Shown piece after piece: positions 10,600 through 36,122 of a stretch of DNA of 46,617 bases. This DNA comes from a virus (lineage: Duplodnaviria; Heunggongvirae; Uroviricota; Caudoviricetes). Location: positions 83,249 to 129,865 of IMG/VR virus record IMGVR_UViG_3300021600_000003; one strand, given 5' to 3'. The position numbers were made by a program, and so were the translations under genes. Below the pieces are notes generated by a model that was not told the origin of the DNA, did no database searches, and worked only from the letters and a program-made list of their open reading frames with translations. Numbering within the stretch: the stretch's first letter is position 1; every line of letters starts with the position of its first letter.

Positions 10600-10848
10600 A
10601 TGATAGTACCTAAAGTTGGTGATTGGGTAAGATTACCTAGTATACGTCCAGCTAATTGGAATCCGTATGGTAAAATGGATCACTTTCTAGGAAAGATTGT
10701 AAAAGTTCTTGATATACGTTATTCAAGCTTTCTTTTTGAAGGTCAACTCGGATGGAATTTTAAATATAGAGAAATTGAAGAGAATCTTGGTCCAGATTAT
10801 GATCCTGATGAAACTCAAACAATTAAAAATCACTATACAATCTTTTAA
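10600..10848 (+). CDS. Small KOW/SH3-like protein with C-terminal tag (..IKNHYTIF)
   Basis: KVGDWVR start; shared tail motif. Confidence 0.8.
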   Translation: MIVPKVGDWVRLPSIRPANWNPYGKMDHFLGKIVKVLDIRYSSFLFEGQLGWNFKYREIEENLGPDYDPDETQTIKNHYTIF

Positions 10849-11969: not shown

Positions 11970-12173
11970 ATGAGCAAAGAATTAATTGCCTCAGCTAGAC
12001 CCGGTCAGCATCAGGTAAAGATTTACAAAAACAAATATGTTAAGACATTTGTTTATGCAAGAGTACGTAAAATGACATTCATTGAAAATCCCTCCCATAA
12101 AAATTTTATGTCAGCTATTTTTAGAATAGCTCATAATATACTTAAGCAAACATCTATAAAATATAATCCATGA
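11970..12173 (+). CDS. Small basic hypothetical protein
   Basis: ATGA overlap with the next gene. Confidence 0.65.
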   Translation: MSKELIASARPGQHQVKIYKNKYVKTFVYARVRKMTFIENPSHKNFMSAIFRIAHNILKQTSIKYNP

Positions 12174-12442
12174 AATATATCCCTCTAAAAGAACTAGTAG
12201 TTGGTACTTGGTATTATAGTGCTGTTCTTGATTACTTTTTTAAGTTTTTAAAGTTAGAAACTACAAATACTAATTGTGTTTATAGTACAAGACATACAAA
12301 TAAAGGAGAGAATAAAGATTACCTTGATTATTTTTGTCATAGTAAAATGGAAAAAACTATAGAATTAGCTGATATGGATAAAGTAAAGGAGTTTTATCCT
12401 GATGAGTTTCCTGAAATTATTAATACATACGAAATTTTTTAA
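12170..12442 (+). CDS. Small protein with C-terminal tag (..IINTYEIF)
   Basis: ORF track plus shared tail. Confidence 0.8.
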   Translation: MKYIPLKELVVGTWYYSAVLDYFFKFLKLETTNTNCVYSTRHTNKGENKDYLDYFCHSKMEKTIELADMDKVKEFYPDEFPEIINTYEIF

Positions 12443-12444
12443 CT

Positions 12445-12495
12445 ATGAAAAGAGAACATCCTCCAACTATTAATTTATCATATTCAATTTTTTAA
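12445..12495 (+). CDS. 16-aa micro-ORF MKREHPPTINLSYSIF (mostly the C-terminal tag)
   Basis: Manual translation; 2-nt spacing to both the upstream stop and the downstream ATG. Confidence 0.6.
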   Translation: MKREHPPTINLSYSIF

Positions 12496-12497
12496 TT

Positions 12498-12757
12498 ATG
12501 GAATACACAATCACTGATATATATATAATGGCTTTACTTTTAAGAATAATAAAGGAAAAGGTAAAACATATCAAGTTACTAAAATACAATCTACTACTTA
12601 TATACATTTAAAAGGAACTGATAATAATTATGATAATAGTCATTATGAAATTAGTGAGATTGTACGTCTTTTAAATGCTGGAACATATGTAGAGGAAAAA
12701 CTCTTAACGGTTGAGGTAGCTGAACCAATTATAATTAACTCTTACTCAATCTTTTAA
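12498..12757 (+). pseudogene. Tagged small protein (..EPIIINSYSIF) frameshifted at an (AT)5 tract
   Basis: Removing one AT from 12517-12526 gives an 85-aa ORF, MEYTITDIYNGFTFKNNKGKG...IINSYSIF. Confidence 0.75.
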
Positions 12758-12758
12758 T

Positions 12759-13076
12759 ATGAAAAAATTAATATACGGAAAGAATGTACATGAAGGAGAC
12801 ATTGTTACATATGTGAATTCTAATGGGGACCGTTATCCAGCAAAAGTATCTAAAAACGGTCATTGTAGCTGTTATGCATCTATAAAAAATAACTCGTTTT
12901 GCAACTATAGTGGAGGTATTCCAGAAGATGGGATAGAAGAAGCTCTTCCTGAAGAAAAGAAATGGCTTGAAATGTGTATAGCAGAAGGACGACGTGTTGT
13001 TTCCTTTGATAGAGCTGTTGAATTGTATAATTCTGAAAAGACTCATTCTATTATTAACAATTATTCACTTTTTTAA
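12759..13076 (+). CDS. Small protein with C-terminal tag (..IINNYSLF)
   Basis: EGDIV KOW-like start; shared tail. Confidence 0.8.
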   Translation: MKKLIYGKNVHEGDIVTYVNSNGDRYPAKVSKNGHCSCYASIKNNSFCNYSGGIPEDGIEEALPEEKKWLEMCIAEGRRVVSFDRAVELYNSEKTHSIINNYSLF

Positions 13077-13078
13077 TT

Positions 13079-13309
13079 ATGTCACTATTAGATAAAGGAA
13101 TCAAAGTTGGTTCAAGAGTTCGTATGTTGTCCACTACTCAATATGATGAAGATGATAGTAATCCTCGTGATTGTGAGGGTACTGTTGATATATATAATAA
13201 TCATCATGCCTCTGTACAATGGGACAATGGTTATCACAATGGATCATATGATGATAAGGATATTGGATTAGCTGAACCAACCATAATCAATTCATATTCA
13301 CTGTTTTAA
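13079..13309 (+). CDS. Small protein with C-terminal tag (..IINSYSLF); paralog of 15353..15577
   Basis: Shared RVRML.TTQY..DSNPRDC.GTV..WDNG. Confidence 0.85.
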   Translation: MSLLDKGIKVGSRVRMLSTTQYDEDDSNPRDCEGTVDIYNNHHASVQWDNGYHNGSYDDKDIGLAEPTIINSYSLF

Positions 13310-13310
13310 A

Positions 13311-13583
13311 ATGGGTAATGATATTGATATAGCAAGAAGTGCTATCGATAATCTTCAAAGTACTATTGATAACCTTGAAGAAGAAAAGGATAATATATCT
13401 TCCAACTATGATGAGCTAGAAGTCAAATTGGCTAACGCAAATGACAAGATAGAAGAATTAAGAACAGAATTAAGTAATTACTCTACAGAGATTAGTAATC
13501 TTAATAGTGTAATTAATGATTTAGTATCCAAAAATGAAGAACTACAAAAGAACACAGTAAACAACAATTATTCAATCGTTTAA
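13311..13583 (+). CDS. Coiled-coil protein with C-terminal tag (..VNNNYSIV)
   Basis: Heptad-like pattern; shared tail. Confidence 0.8.
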   Translation: MGNDIDIARSAIDNLQSTIDNLEEEKDNISSNYDELEVKLANANDKIEELRTELSNYSTEISNLNSVINDLVSKNEELQKNTVNNNYSIV

Positions 13584-13603: not shown

Positions 13604-14092
13604 ATGGCAAAGAAAACAGCAACAGACAGCCCTTCATTGGAATTGGCTATTACTAAAGGTGGTATTCCTGATGTAATGAAAGCTCTTGAAGCTAAAATGA
13701 AAGAATTTGAGTTCATTCGTGACTCAAAGTACAAAACTTCCGGTAATCTGGATGGTTTTGGTGACCTGAAGAATGAAAAACTTATCCCTAACCTTATCCG
13801 TGCATACTCACTGGTGTTGGCAAAGTCAACAGCTTATGAGAATGCTGCACAAGATCTTGGTTTATCTTCTTACCCTGCCTTTGAAATTGGCGGTGGATCT
13901 ACTGAAGACTGGAGAAGTGATATCCTCTTGAGGAAAGCTATTATTGAGCAGAAAGAAAACATGGACAAACTGCAGGCCTTCAGGGACAAAGCAGCTAAAT
14001 TCATGTCTGAATCTGATCAGAAAGCAATGTTCTTCCAAGAAATGCAGGCTTTCCTGTCTACTACAGGTGGAGCAATTGAAAGTGGCGACTAA
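13604..14092 (+). CDS. Hypothetical protein (162 aa)
   Basis: ORF followed by a terminator hairpin at about 14102-14130. Confidence 0.8.
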   Translation: MAKKTATDSPSLELAITKGGIPDVMKALEAKMKEFEFIRDSKYKTSGNLDGFGDLKNEKLIPNLIRAYSLVLAKSTAYENAAQDLGLSSYPAFEIGGGSTEDWRSDILLRKAIIEQKENMDKLQAFRDKAAKFMSESDQKAMFFQEMQAFLSTTGGAIESGD

Positions 14093-14143: not shown

Positions 14144-14437
14144 ATGTCATTAATAATAAGTGAACTACAAATAGGAGAAGCATATACAACAATTGGTAAG
14201 GATGTAGGATATACATTTATACATGATGGAGATAGTACATGTGTTTCATATATCTACTATGGTACATATCATACAGGAGGTCATTTATCAAGTATAGATA
14301 ATATTAGCTTTTCTTTTTATGAGAAAGCTAGTGAAATAGACAAAGCATGGCTAGTAGCATGTATAGAAGCTAAACGTACAGTACCAAAACCTGTAGAAAT
14401 CCCTTCTCTTATAAAAAATAATTATTCTTTATACTAA
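14144..14437 (+). CDS. Small protein with C-terminal tag (..IKNNYSLY)
   Basis: ORF track plus shared tail. Confidence 0.8.
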   Translation: MSLIISELQIGEAYTTIGKDVGYTFIHDGDSTCVSYIYYGTYHTGGHLSSIDNISFSFYEKASEIDKAWLVACIEAKRTVPKPVEIPSLIKNNYSLY

Positions 14438-15352: not shown

Positions 15353-15577
15353 ATGAAACAAGAAATAGAAATCGAATCAAGAGTTCGTATGTTAAATACT
15401 ACTCAATATGGAGAATGTGATAGTAATCCTCGTGATTGTGATGGTACTGTTACTGATATAAAGGAATATGGAGAATATAGTGTTGTGTGGGATAATGGTC
15501 AAGATAATGGGTCATATACTGATACAGATATTGGACTAATTGTACCAACAATAAATAATAACTATTCAATCTTTTAA
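15353..15577 (+). CDS. Small protein with C-terminal tag (..INNNYSIF); paralog of 13079..13309
   Basis: High nucleotide and protein similarity to 13079..13309. Confidence 0.85.
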   Translation: MKQEIEIESRVRMLNTTQYGECDSNPRDCDGTVTDIKEYGEYSVVWDNGQDNGSYTDTDIGLIVPTINNNYSIF

Positions 15578-19008: not shown

Positions 19009-19299
19009 ATGTTACCAGAAAAATGGGTTATACAAAATAAGAAAAAGGATAAACAATTTCGAGATACTTTCTTCTCATTTATGAAAACAATTCTTTCACC
19101 TAATGAGTATGTTACTCTCACTAATCATTATAGTATAGGTTGGACTTATTTTCATTTTCCAAATTATACAACTTGTAAAGGATTTCTATTTGGAGATCAT
19201 ACTGCTCTTTATAAAGAGGAAGGTTATACTGAAGTAACTTTATATAATTTGATAGAAAATTGTGAATTAACTATTAATAACACATATACAATCTTTTAG
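19009..19299 (+). CDS. Small protein (MLPEKW..) with C-terminal tag (..INNTYTIF)
   Basis: ORF track plus shared tail. Confidence 0.8.
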   Translation: MLPEKWVIQNKKKDKQFRDTFFSFMKTILSPNEYVTLTNHYSIGWTYFHFPNYTTCKGFLFGDHTALYKEEGYTEVTLYNLIENCELTINNTYTIF

Positions 19300-30217: not shown

Positions 30218-30451
30218 ATGAAAGAAGGAGATAATGTCATTTTATATGATATAAAAACAGAAAAGGAATGGGATACAATAGGATTTGTTAATTTAACAGA
30301 TTATGGATTAAAAATAGGAGAAACTTATACTATACATAGTATAAGTAGCAATACTCTTCAATTAGTAGAAGATACGTACAAATGGAATATTCCGTTTATT
30401 TGTTTTAGTGAACCTATACCATCTATAATCGATAATTATGAATTAATATGA
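30218..30451 (+). CDS. Small protein with C-terminal tag (..IIDNYELI)
   Basis: MKEGDNV KOW-like start; shared tail. Confidence 0.75.
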   Translation: MKEGDNVILYDIKTEKEWDTIGFVNLTDYGLKIGETYTIHSISSNTLQLVEDTYKWNIPFICFSEPIPSIIDNYELI

Positions 30452-30696
30452 GAAACGAAAATATTGGACAAAAAATCCGATTTGTACGAAAACCTACTTC
30501 TGATGAATGGAAAGGAATAGGTGAAATACCATTTTCAAAAAGACTTGAAGAAGCTATAGAAAAAGGTTTACCATTAATACTTCAGGATATTCATAATCAC
30601 TTTAATAGTATATATATAGAAGGAGAAGATGGCTGGTGGCCTATAGTTTGTTTTGAGTTGTATAGTGCTATAAAGGACAATTATTCTATATTTTAA
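30448..30696 (+). CDS. Small protein with C-terminal tag (..IKDNYSIF)
   Basis: Shared tail; stop overlaps the helicase ATG. Confidence 0.8.
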   Translation: MRNENIGQKIRFVRKPTSDEWKGIGEIPFSKRLEEAIEKGLPLILQDIHNHFNSIYIEGEDGWWPIVCFELYSAIKDNYSIF

Positions 30697-33371: not shown

Positions 33372-33451
33372 ACTTTGCCTGTTCTTAAGTGACTTCCCCC
33401 GTAAGGGAAGCCCTCGGGTTACAATATCGTAACCACTTAAAAAACAATAAT

Positions 33452-34429
33452 ATGGCAGTAAAAGGAAGACAAAAAGAACAAAAAGAGTTTACAAACAAAC
33501 TATTTGTTGGCTTTACAGCAGTTAAAGTAATTGCAGTAAATCCTACCAGAGAAGAACTCAACAAGATTTTGGGAAAAGAAGACAGTCAAGAAGACAAAGC
33601 AATTACGTATTTAGGAAGTGACCAAGAAGGTAATGACCGTATGCGTATTTTATTTGTACTAAAGGATGACAAAAATGAGAAAATCTTCTTCCATTCATTT
33701 AATCTTACTAACAAAGTAAGAAAGAATAAGGAAGGGGACAAATGTCAGATTGTTAATTCCACTTGCTCTACTAGTTGGGCACCATTTATCAAAGCACTTG
33801 ATAAAAAAGGTAAAGCTATTCTAGATGAGAATGGTAAAGAAACGTATACTGAGAAAGTGAATGCTGAACTCATTCAAGATTGGTTTGCAAACTTTACTAA
33901 CAAGGAAAAGGAAGTTCTTGGTCCAAAGAAATGGAGAGAAGCCTTATCTGGTGAAGAAGAGTTAGTTACATTACTTAGAAGTTGGCTTGGAAGGCTAGAC
34001 TTTATGGATCCTGAAACTGAAGTATTTGTTGATACAGCTAAACTGTTCAAGGAAAACTTCAAAGAGTTAAGGGAGCTTATTAGTTTAGACGAATCAGGTA
34101 ACTTTACAGATGGTGGATTAGATACCCCATTTGTAGTACTATTAGGTGTAAGAACTGATGAAGATGATGCTACTAAAAAGTATCAACAAATATGGGGTAA
34201 AGCATTCTTACCTGCAGGATTCATGAAGTATATCAATAACGACATGAAGTTTCCTACAGACTATTCTAAGAAAATCTTTAAGAAATTCAAGGAAGAAGTT
34301 GAAGGTGATTATGGCTTTAATGGCTATACAGAGTTGGTACCTTTGATAGAGTATGATGAAGCTAAAGACATTGCTGGTAGTGCTACTACTGGTAAAGAAA
34401 TAGCTGCACCTACATCTGGAGATTACTAA
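33452..34429 (+). CDS. Putative single-stranded DNA-binding protein
   Basis: GFTAVKVIAVNPTREEL start, acidic tail, position between Sak4-like ATPase and primase; function is inferred. Confidence 0.55.
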   Translation: MAVKGRQKEQKEFTNKLFVGFTAVKVIAVNPTREELNKILGKEDSQEDKAITYLGSDQEGNDRMRILFVLKDDKNEKIFFHSFNLTNKVRKNKEGDKCQIVNSTCSTSWAPFIKALDKKGKAILDENGKETYTEKVNAELIQDWFANFTNKEKEVLGPKKWREALSGEEELVTLLRSWLGRLDFMDPETEVFVDTAKLFKENFKELRELISLDESGNFTDGGLDTPFVVLLGVRTDEDDATKKYQQIWGKAFLPAGFMKYINNDMKFPTDYSKKIFKKFKEEVEGDYGFNGYTELVPLIEYDEAKDIAGSATTGKEIAAPTSGDY

Positions 34430-34450
34430 GGATTTTGTACGAAAAGTGAA

Positions 34451-34479
34451 GGAGGGCTCAGAAATGGGCTCTCCTTTTT
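34451..34479 (+). terminator. Intrinsic terminator
   Basis: GGAGGGCTC-AGAAAT-GGGCTCTCC plus T-run. Confidence 0.8.
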
Positions 34480-34536
34480 ATTTAACTTAAAAATTTATAA
34501 TATGTGTTTTTATATATTATTATAAACCATGTTAAT

Positions 34537-35571
34537 ATGATAAAAGGAAGATTAAAAGTTAAACCTCTAGAGAAAGAAGATATACTACGGAGAATTACTC
34601 CGTATGATATTTACCGTCTATATCAGGGATCATTCAAACTGAATGATGTTTGTGTAAATTATCATAGAGGGGAGAAAAACCCTTCTCTTATTATAAGTAC
34701 TCGTCTGTCTAGTCAGCTTCGACATAAGGATTTTGGAGATAAAGACTGGAGTGGAGACTGTTTTAATTTTGTACAACAGATTCATAGATGTGACTTTGGT
34801 ACGGCTTTAAAGATTATCGATAGAGACTTCTGTCTAGGACTTACAAATGGAAAAGTAGTTAATAATAAACAAATCATTACTTGGGGACAACCTGAGGTTG
34901 AGGAAAAACGTCCTCCACTTTTTCAGATAATTTATTATTCTCATATGTCTAGACAAGCTTTAGATTATTGGAAGAAATTTGGAGTTACTGAAGCAGATTT
35001 AAGAAAAGAACATATATATCAGCCAGCAGAAATTTGGAGAAATAGGAAGAAGATACCTATGGGTAATTTAATGACATTTGCTTATCATTATCCTGAAATA
35101 GATAAATGGAAGATATATCGACCATTTGCTCCAAAGAGAACAGAGAGTACTCCTATCAATCAATGGAAGTGGGATAGTAATGTTCCCTTTGATTATATCG
35201 ATAATATGTCAGCCATCAAAGGTGACTGTACAGCTATGTTCCTTGCTAAGAGTAAGAAGGATAGATTAGTATTAATGAATGCGTTAGGTACTGATTGTAT
35301 TGCTGATGTTCAGGCAGAAGATGCAGGATGTCTTACATTTGAGAATTTGGAACAATTTAAGACAGTTGATAAAAGGTATATTATCTCTGATAATGATAAA
35401 AAGGGCAAAGAGTTCTCTTGGTGGTTAACAAAGGAGCACGGCTTTAAGCACGTAAATGTTCCAGATAAGTATCTTCTTGAGACTCCAAAGTGTACAGATT
35501 TTGCAGACTTATGCTATCATCATGGTATGGAAGCAGTTATTAGTTACTTTAAAACAAAACAGATTATATGA
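34537..35571 (+). CDS. DNA primase (crAss-like, Toprim)
   Basis: Degenerate Zn-binding region (CVNYHRGEKNPS, DFG..SGDCF); AKSKKD; ISDNDKKG. Confidence 0.8.
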   Translation: MIKGRLKVKPLEKEDILRRITPYDIYRLYQGSFKLNDVCVNYHRGEKNPSLIISTRLSSQLRHKDFGDKDWSGDCFNFVQQIHRCDFGTALKIIDRDFCLGLTNGKVVNNKQIITWGQPEVEEKRPPLFQIIYYSHMSRQALDYWKKFGVTEADLRKEHIYQPAEIWRNRKKIPMGNLMTFAYHYPEIDKWKIYRPFAPKRTESTPINQWKWDSNVPFDYIDNMSAIKGDCTAMFLAKSKKDRLVLMNALGTDCIADVQAEDAGCLTFENLEQFKTVDKRYIISDNDKKGKEFSWWLTKEHGFKHVNVPDKYLLETPKCTDFADLCYHHGMEAVISYFKTKQII

Positions 35572-35606
35572 CAACACAAATTATTAACGATTATAATATA
35601 TTTTAA
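35568..35606 (+). CDS. 12-aa micro-ORF MTTQIINDYNIF (tag-only peptide)
   Basis: ATG overlaps the primase stop (ATGA); its TAA abuts the next ATG at 35607. Confidence 0.6.
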   Translation: MTTQIINDYNIF

Positions 35607-36122
35607 ATGAAAGAATTAAGAGTAACTCCTGAAGTAATTAATGATTTAGTCAAAAATCAAATATTTGTATTTGGCAGTAATGAATCTGGTATTCATGGTG
35701 CAGGTGCTGCAAGACTTGCAGTAGATAAATTTGGTGCTCAACCCGGTAAAGGTTGGGGATTGTCGGGCAATACATTTGCATTGCCAACAAAAGATTGGGA
35801 GATTAAGACTCTTCCAATTGAAGCAGTAAAAAACTACGTGGATAGGTTTATAGCCTTGACAAATGGACATTATCATAGCAAATGGAATTTTCTAGTAACT
35901 AAAATAGGATGTGGATTAGCTGGTTTTACTCCAGAGGAAATTGCTCCTTTATTTAAAGAATGTCGTAACCAAAGAAATATATGGTTACCACAGGATTTTC
36001 ATGATGTATTAGATGGTATATATGTACCATCAGCAGAAATTCCTCTTGATTTAATACCTTCTGTATCAGGAGGTCTTATTCTAACTGGTTTTAAACCACA
36101 AAAAGATATTCTTAACAATTAA
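35607..36122 (+). CDS. FVFGSN..G.HG.GAA family phage protein (macro-domain-like, A1S_2505 type)
   Basis: IFVFGSNESGIHGAGAA; TKIGCGLAG. Confidence 0.75.
   Translation: MKELRVTPEVINDLVKNQIFVFGSNESGIHGAGAARLAVDKFGAQPGKGWGLSGNTFALPTKDWEIKTLPIEAVKNYVDRFIALTNGHYHSKWNFLVTKIGCGLAGFTPEEIAPLFKECRNQRNIWLPQDFHDVLDGIYVPSAEIPLDLIPSVSGGLILTGFKPQKDILNN

Follow-up and report, generated by a model that had tools for sequence, protein, structure and literature searches.

A twelve-codon reading frame between the primase gene and its neighbor in a lake-water phage, a probable relic of an in-frame gene-block deletion

The C-terminal tip of SSB, which reads D-D-D-I-P-F in E. coli, is a hub-binding peptide. Portable C-terminal motifs that bind the sliding clamp have also been described in the gp43, gp55, and gp33 proteins of T4 (PMC2988020). 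Where translation is concerned, gene pairs whose stop and start codons overlap, as in ATGA or TAATG, have been reported to be coupled by termination-reinitiation (Huber et al., PMC6728339, PMC10666635), and, in the E. coli and Haloferax reporters described there, a gap of approximately 20 nt almost abolishes this coupling (PMC10666635).

The micro-ORF analyzed here, which separates the primase gene of a lake-water phage from the gene that follows it, resembles the pairs of Huber et al. in its 4-nt ATGA overlap at the 5' end and its 0-nt gap at the 3' end, and, among the gene junctions of the window (the whole stretch of 46,617 nt that was analyzed), the ATGA overlap is the most frequent, being used by 12 of 72, all of them ordinary gene pairs. 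It differs from these pairs in that the middle cistron has a mere 12 codons, is very probably a deletion relic, and would be a pure relay. The coupling experiments reported by Huber et al. were, furthermore, performed in E. coli and Haloferax rather than in a Bacteroidota-type host. The features of the locus are as follows:

34504 to 35571, + strand: DNA primase, with a likely start at ATG 34537 (344 aa), which agrees with the called relatives (344/355-aa gene)
35568 to 35606, + strand: micro-ORF, MTTQIINDYNIF-stop, the probable relic of an in-frame head-to-tail fusion
35568 to 35576, + strand: head of the micro-ORF, ATGACAACA (M-T-T), the probable retained start of a post-primase gene
35577 to 35606, + strand: tail of the micro-ORF, Q-I-I-N-D-Y-N-I-F plus TAA, nine codons, the probable retained 3' end of a tagged gene
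35607 to 36122, + strand: downstream gene, 171 aa, phrog_2072 (unknown function), E 9e-38

The sequence-only reading had described a 12-codon ORF whose ATG overlaps the primase stop and whose TAA directly abuts the next ATG, and both the coordinates and the description proved exact. The ATG (35568-35570) shares its TG with the primase stop TGA (35569-35571), which gives ATGA at 35568-35571, while the TAA (35604-35606) is followed without a gap by the ATG of the 171-aa gene at 35607. The 12 sense codons encode the peptide given above, with ATG ACA ACA in the head and CAA ATT ATT AAC GAT TAT AAT ATA TTT TAA in the tail. The further claim that the product is almost entirely a shared tag also held, given that residues 5-12 (IINDYNIF), which stand at the extreme C-terminus directly before the stop, fit the tag motif of 12 other frames; ahead of the tag, the micro-ORF has only MTTQ, whereas all the other tagged members have a protein body of 55-170 aa. 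The upstream gene was assigned to the phrog_12622 DNA primase (E 9.6e-21), with 129 homologues, the distant ones of which carry PF01807. The micro-ORF site is covered by the contigs of one of two lake-water DNA runs, the probable source run, and, as the contigs of the other run end at 35543, this second run provides no independent allele.

A strong terminator-like hairpin (34448-34477), with 13 pairs and then a T-rich tail, lies between the gene of a 346-aa protein and that of the primase, and, given its position, the genes from the primase onward, the micro-ORF included, may constitute a separate transcription unit. The 346-aa protein itself (33389-34429), which is encoded directly upstream of the primase, has an extreme C-terminus that is conserved in relatives, with the endings APTSGDY, APQTSEY, APTSSDY, and SPHSSEY in the homologues of loci L001, L003, L005, and L012. 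These endings may represent another C-terminal docking tail, distinct from the tag, and our guess is that the protein is SSB-like.

The tag, defined as [ITV]-x-[ND]-x-Y-[STEN]-[IL]-[FIVY]-stop, ends 12 + strand frames besides the micro-ORF, all located at 10.6-30.7 kb of the window, and no tagged frames were found elsewhere in the 129,865-bp genome. These frames are:

10600 to 10848, + strand: tagged gene, tail IKNHYTIF
12170 to 12442, + strand: tagged gene, tail IINTYEIF
12445 to 12495, + strand: second tag-only mini-ORF, 16 aa, MKREHPPTINLSYSIF, with 2-nt spacers to both neighboring tagged genes
12498 to 12757, + strand: tagged gene, tail IIINSYSIF; the ATG frame and the tagged frame differ
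12759 to 13076, + strand: tagged gene, tail IINNYSLF
13079 to 13309, + strand: tagged gene, tail IINSYSLF
13311 to 13583, + strand: tagged coiled-coil gene, tail VNNNYSIV
14144 to 14437, + strand: tagged gene, tail IKNNYSLY
15353 to 15577, + strand: tagged gene, tail INNNYSIF
19009 to 19299, + strand: tagged gene, tail INNTYTIF
30218 to 30451, + strand: tagged gene, tail IIDNYELI, between the DnaB-like and SNF2-like helicase genes
30448 to 30696, + strand: tagged gene, tail IKDNYSIF, a paralogue of 30218-30451

The motif followed by a stop occurs 12 times in the window, in comparison with a mean of 0.04 and a maximum of 2 in 200 dinucleotide-preserving shuffles, which excludes chance as the source of the tag. 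The proteins that precede it are mutually unrelated (coiled coil, small globular), except for two paralogous-looking pairs. Given that the tag codons vary synonymously (ATT/ATA, AAC/AAT, TCA/TCT, CTT/TTA) and that the tagged genes differ in their downstream context, the tag is conserved as a peptide and not as DNA; the same synonymous variation, together with the variable distance to the next gene, rules out a DNA-level signal, such as a promoter, a terminator, or a ribosome site. The mini-ORF at 12445-12495 is probably another in-frame relic. The adjacent gene at 12498-12757 starts as MEYTITDIYI... in the ATG frame and ends as ...PIIINSYSIF in the tagged frame. The shift between the two apparently falls within a (TA)n run at approximately 12519-12528, and may indicate that the gene is a pseudogene, that the assembly is in error, or that slippage occurs here. 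The use of the tag is patchy among the primase relatives, given that no tagged proteins were found in the 146.7-kb contig G001, the closest long relative by primase in IMG/VR.

A candidate partner for the tag is encoded among these genes:

13604 to 14092, + strand: P0001, candidate tag partner, 162 aa, helical

This is the only protein common to the tag-bearing, otherwise dissimilar phage contigs G000, G002, and G003 (blastp 1e-4), and in each of these contigs its homologue is located among the tagged genes, while the present phage carries a P0001-family gene in the same genome as the micro-ORF. The proteins of the family have approximately 150 aa and were found at loci L156-L164, L172, L176, L178, and L180-L182; the search for related loci with a 16-sequence alignment added one locus. 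At 14 of the 15 loci with a P0001 homologue, a C-terminal tail is common to 2-13 small genes, mostly beside the homologue, the exception being L183, a 2.8 kb contig. The tail varies with the lineage of the homologue, being NNYSIF-like in this phage, L161, and L163, NY[ED]I[FY] in L172, EPxYEIY in L176, INx[YF]SIF in L178, EQFPIY in L180, and NFD[IVT]L in L181 and L182. As the tag and the P0001 family both co-occur and co-vary, the sequences point to a co-evolving tag-and-partner pair.

The P0001 family comprises 1332 cluster representatives at E <=0.001, all unannotated. The AlphaFold model of P0001 is helical (pLDDT 81); a Pfam search returned no family, Foldseek against the PDB gave no match with E <0.001, the ESM Atlas shape search reached TM <=0.43 by query, and VIA-align wide retrieved, at best (Z 6.4), generic helical hairpins, with no convincing fold match. 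No description of the tag or of its partner was found in the literature.

When this system is set beside those described above, the tag is similar to the T4 motifs in being a short hydrophobic/aromatic C-terminal peptide with a variable linker that is portable and common to unrelated proteins. On the other hand, the gene that travels with the tag, and whose product is the candidate partner suggested by the sequences, encodes a helical protein of approximately 150 aa that has neither a clamp fold nor any known fold, and the tagged proteins here are many fast-evolving small proteins, whereas the bearers of the T4 motifs are subunits of the replisome or the RNA polymerase. The tag is also similar to the SSB tip in its position at the extreme C-terminus, with a hydrophobic residue and Phe last, and free tag peptides may compete for partners as those of the SSB tip can, although the tag reads N-N-Y-S-I-F rather than acidic-P-F, and is found on at least 12 different proteins rather than on one. 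We do not claim that the tag belongs to either the T4 clamp-motif or the SSB-tip family.

The origin of the micro-ORF can be traced in relatives of the phage. A total of 22 loci in which a related primase gene (53-82% identity) is present with its 3' end were obtained from IMG/VR, JGI/ENA metagenomes, Logan assemblies, and one NCBI assembly. An ATG overlaps the primase stop as ATGA in 20 of these 22 relatives, in which it opens a gene of 51-236 aa, except for one ORF that leaves its contig at 32 aa. The interval between the primase and phrog_2072 ranges from 277 to 2446 nt in the 15 relatives that have both genes, in comparison with 35 nt here, and contains from one to five variable genes, including homing-endonuclease genes. 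Such genes (GIY-YIG, LAGLIDADG) were observed within or 3' of the interval, at L001 7085-7780 (GIY-YIG), at L168 3185-3859, and at the 3' ends of L165 and L184, and their presence shows that gene flux is concentrated in this region. No tag-only ORF was found at the primase-phrog_2072 locus in any of the 22 relatives, and the exact micro-ORF peptide, searched as a DNA pattern in viral contigs, gave 0 matches.

Three of the closer relatives show the ancestral gene order. The primase is followed in L165 by a 91-aa gene (MTTDHID...) and then phrog_2072. L184, whose primase is 79-80% identical, has a 96-aa gene (MTTFEED...), a 233-aa gene, and an 82-aa gene ending in KIINNYSII-stop before phrog_2072, while L169 (primase 79% identical) has genes of 95 aa and 234 aa, followed by an 81-aa gene ending in QVINNYNIF-stop, an 84-aa gene ending in EIINNYNLF-stop, and then phrog_2072. 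Full-length tagged genes are therefore present at this locus in L169 (81 and 84 aa) and L184 (82 aa), which was the check proposed alongside the original description of the micro-ORF. The phrog_2072 homologue overlaps the upstream stop, or lies <=2 nt from it, in L165, L168, L169, and L184.

The two parts of the micro-ORF match the two ends of this gene block. The head, ATGACAACA, agrees in all 9 nt with the start of the 91-aa gene of L165 and in its first 8 nt with that of the 96-aa gene of L184, and both of these genes also overlap the primase stop as ATGA. Of the 30 nt of the tail, 26 are identical to those that close the 81-aa tagged gene of L169, and 25 to those that close the 84-aa gene, whereas only 16-21 of the 30 are shared with the tagged paralogues of the phage's own genome; the match of 26/30 is also higher than the identity of the flanking genes, at 200-237 of 300 nt. 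There is no trace in the window of the bodies of the post-primase genes of L169, L184, or L165. Given that the head and the tail are homologous to the two ends of the gene block of the relatives, the micro-ORF can be read as the relic of an in-frame head-to-tail deletion. The tail IINDYNIF is, in addition, the exact tail of a 71-aa protein in L157, and the intact tag of the micro-ORF is predicted both by a recent deletion and by purifying selection on the peptide.

The ancestral order would have been the primase, a 91-96 aa gene with an M-T-T start and an ATG overlapping the primase stop, often a gene of 233-234 aa, and one or two tagged genes of 81-84 aa, ending in ...IINNY[NS]I[FI], before phrog_2072. 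A single deletion of approximately 1.2-1.5 kb would have joined the first three codons of the first gene in frame to the last nine of the tagged gene, and this event would have left both native junctions in place, that is, the ATGA on the primase side and the TAA-ATG contact with the phrog_2072 gene on the other. One of the two alternatives in the sequence-only reading, in which the gene body had been deleted and the tag left behind, is thus supported as the origin of the micro-ORF, given that its two parts correspond to the two ends of the block that would have been lost and that L169 and L184 keep the tagged genes. With high confidence, then, we consider the micro-ORF to be the deletion relic of an accessory-gene block, which would now act as a ribosome relay from the primase to the phrog_2072 gene.

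Gene relics and fusions formed by in-frame deletion are known from the hypervariable accessory regions that phage genomes contain, and a second deletion is found at this same locus. In comparison with L003 (7047-8044), the loci L002, L007, and L008, which come from three different metagenomes, have a clean deletion of 842 nt, which joins the 45 first codons of the post-primase gene to the last five of the next, 232-aa gene, and produces a 51-aa fusion that is in frame and keeps both junctions. No difference between L002 and L003 is found in the 139 nt before the breakpoint or in the 18 nt after it. This deletion is, judging from the sequences, independent of that which formed the micro-ORF, and the two are alike as clean internal deletions that are head-to-tail and in frame, with the junctions kept, although the L002 fusion keeps 45 residues of the first gene, whereas the micro-ORF keeps three head codons and its product is almost purely tag. 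Both of the deletion alleles at the locus (2/2) are in frame, which would occur by chance in approximately 1 in 9 cases, and this is weakly consistent with selection on the frame. Other signs of decay in the arrays of tagged genes are the frameshifted gene at 12498-12757 and a copy that is truncated in L181 in relation to L182.

The role of the micro-ORF, we infer, is most likely that of a two-step relay from the primase to the next gene, given that neither native junction has been disrupted, that ATGA overlaps are the most frequent junctions in the window, that the phrog_2072 homologue adjoins the upstream stop in the four relatives named above, and that coupling is lost at gaps of approximately 20 nt in the reporter experiments. 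The ribosomes that end the primase would restart at the ATG that overlaps its stop, translate the 12 codons, and terminate right where the next gene starts, so that the micro-ORF would act as a two-step termination-reinitiation relay that couples the phrog_2072 gene to the primase, and its 12-residue product, essentially the bare tag, would be a by-product and not a selected effector. As coupling was almost lost at approximately 20 nt in those reporters, the next gene would no longer be coupled to the primase across 35 untranslated nt; a 12-codon ORF in frame, flanked by ATGA and TAA-ATG, would restore the two-step relay, while an out-of-frame deletion would carry the ribosomes beyond the next start codon. 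This role would explain the persistence of the in-frame remnant, and we reasonably infer that the micro-ORF has been kept to preserve translational coupling. On the other hand, the host is presumably one of the Bacteroidota type, without Shine-Dalgarno-led initiation, and may not need coupling here; the A+T-rich 35 nt might allow the downstream gene to be initiated independently.

Four other readings of the micro-ORF can be weighed against that of a deletion relic that serves as a relay. The likeliest of these is that the relic has been co-opted, with an abundant 12-residue free tag being made together with the replication genes and competing for the partner of the tagged early proteins, either the P0001-family protein or a host factor, so that the tagged proteins would be released or switched off. 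If this were true, a deletion relic would be a timing switch that displaces tagged early accessory proteins from their P0001-family partner, in a tag-and-partner system that has not been described. In favor of this reading, the tag in the tail is intact and reappears, residue for residue, at the end of a natural full-length protein of L157, a family of candidate partners accompanies the tag and varies along with it, and the translation of the micro-ORF is plausible, as its ATGA start type is shared with 12 ordinary genes in the window; the short C-terminal clamp-binding motifs of T4 are, likewise, portable and interchangeable between proteins (PMC2988020), and the second bare-tag mini-ORF of this genome, at 12445-12495, could hint at a use for bare tags. 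Against this stand the lack of a tag-only ORF at the locus in all 22 primase relatives and its occurrence, in clean form, in 0 of the 13 other tag-bearing stretches, where the short matches are a frameshifted or truncated full-length gene, or chance. Two such candidates were rejected: the ORF at 2442-2498 of L178 seems to be the 3' end of a 74-aa gene that has undergone a frameshift in an A8 run, and the 31-aa tagged ORF of L181 is a truncated copy of the 80-aa gene of L182. Within L178 2400-2500, the 74-aa gene gets the lineage tag INTFSIF only through this frameshift, which may result from decay, from an error in sequencing, or from programmed slippage. Peptides that are short and unprotected are usually degraded fast, and the tag-only micro-ORF is present in one genome only. 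The suggestion in the sequence-only reading that the tag works as a free competitor peptide has thus gained no positive evidence, no relative having conserved a tag-only ORF at this locus; a useful peptide from the micro-ORF is unlikely, and we would give the competitor reading roughly the weight of an outside chance.

The remaining readings are considerably less probable than this. The deletion junction might have created a sigma-70-type promoter (ATGACA, 18 nt, TATAAT) that gives a leaderless or near-leaderless transcript from the next ATG, and the micro-ORF does contain, at 35568-35597 and with 11/12, the best promoter-like match in the 5 kb scanned, one of only three 11-of-12 sigma-70-type matches on both strands of the 46.6 kb window, with a -10 hexamer that ends 9 nt before the ATG at 35607; this match is to the sigma-70 consensus, however, while the host is presumably of the Bacteroidota type. 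The Bacteroidota RNA polymerase uses the -35/-10 consensus poorly, and the genome is enriched in promoters of the Bacteroidota type, TTTG...TAnnTTTG (8 vs 2.6 expected). Both hexamers are, moreover, by-products of coding (ATG-ACA for Met-Thr and TAT-AAT for Tyr-Asn), the full-length tail of L169 contains the same TATAAT, and the relatives carry genes, not a promoter, at the site. Because the hexamers follow from coding, L169 shares the TATAAT, and the promoters are of the Bacteroidota type, we rate the promoter reading as very improbable. A marginally lower rating is given to the possibility that the tail was copied from another tagged gene of the phage's own genome, through recombination between tags, rather than left by a deletion in situ: the 16-21 of 30 nt that all the tags share with the tail could seed such recombination, but the best match of the tail is its positional counterpart in L169 (26/30) and no own-genome paralogue, and recombination between tags would delete or swap whole genes, leaving no mini-ORF made up of a head and a tail. 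Finally, a frame of just 39 nt could be open by chance in an A+T-rich spacer, and yet the motif and stop occur 12 times vs 0.04 expected, and the head and the tail are homologous to genes of the relatives; the shuffle counts and this homology refute chance, to which we attach a negligible probability.

The reading of the micro-ORF as the relic of a deleted accessory-gene block, which would relay ribosomes to the next gene, places it, when considered alone, among the ordinary products of gene flux, and little is lost when gene callers overlook it. It is, nevertheless, a clean natural in-frame deletion that leaves the chain of stop-start junctions intact, for which a second independent example is available at the same locus, and the two deletions support the idea that translational coupling limits which deletions survive in the tightly packed operons of phages. 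The micro-ORF is also a minimal tag isolated by nature, and its 12-mer is a ready-made probe, for binding, competition, or pull-down, of the system formed by the tag and its putative partner. It is this tag-and-partner system that is the unusual part, with a partner family of more than 1300 sequence clusters that carry no annotation, and it is far more interesting than the micro-ORF through which it can be approached.
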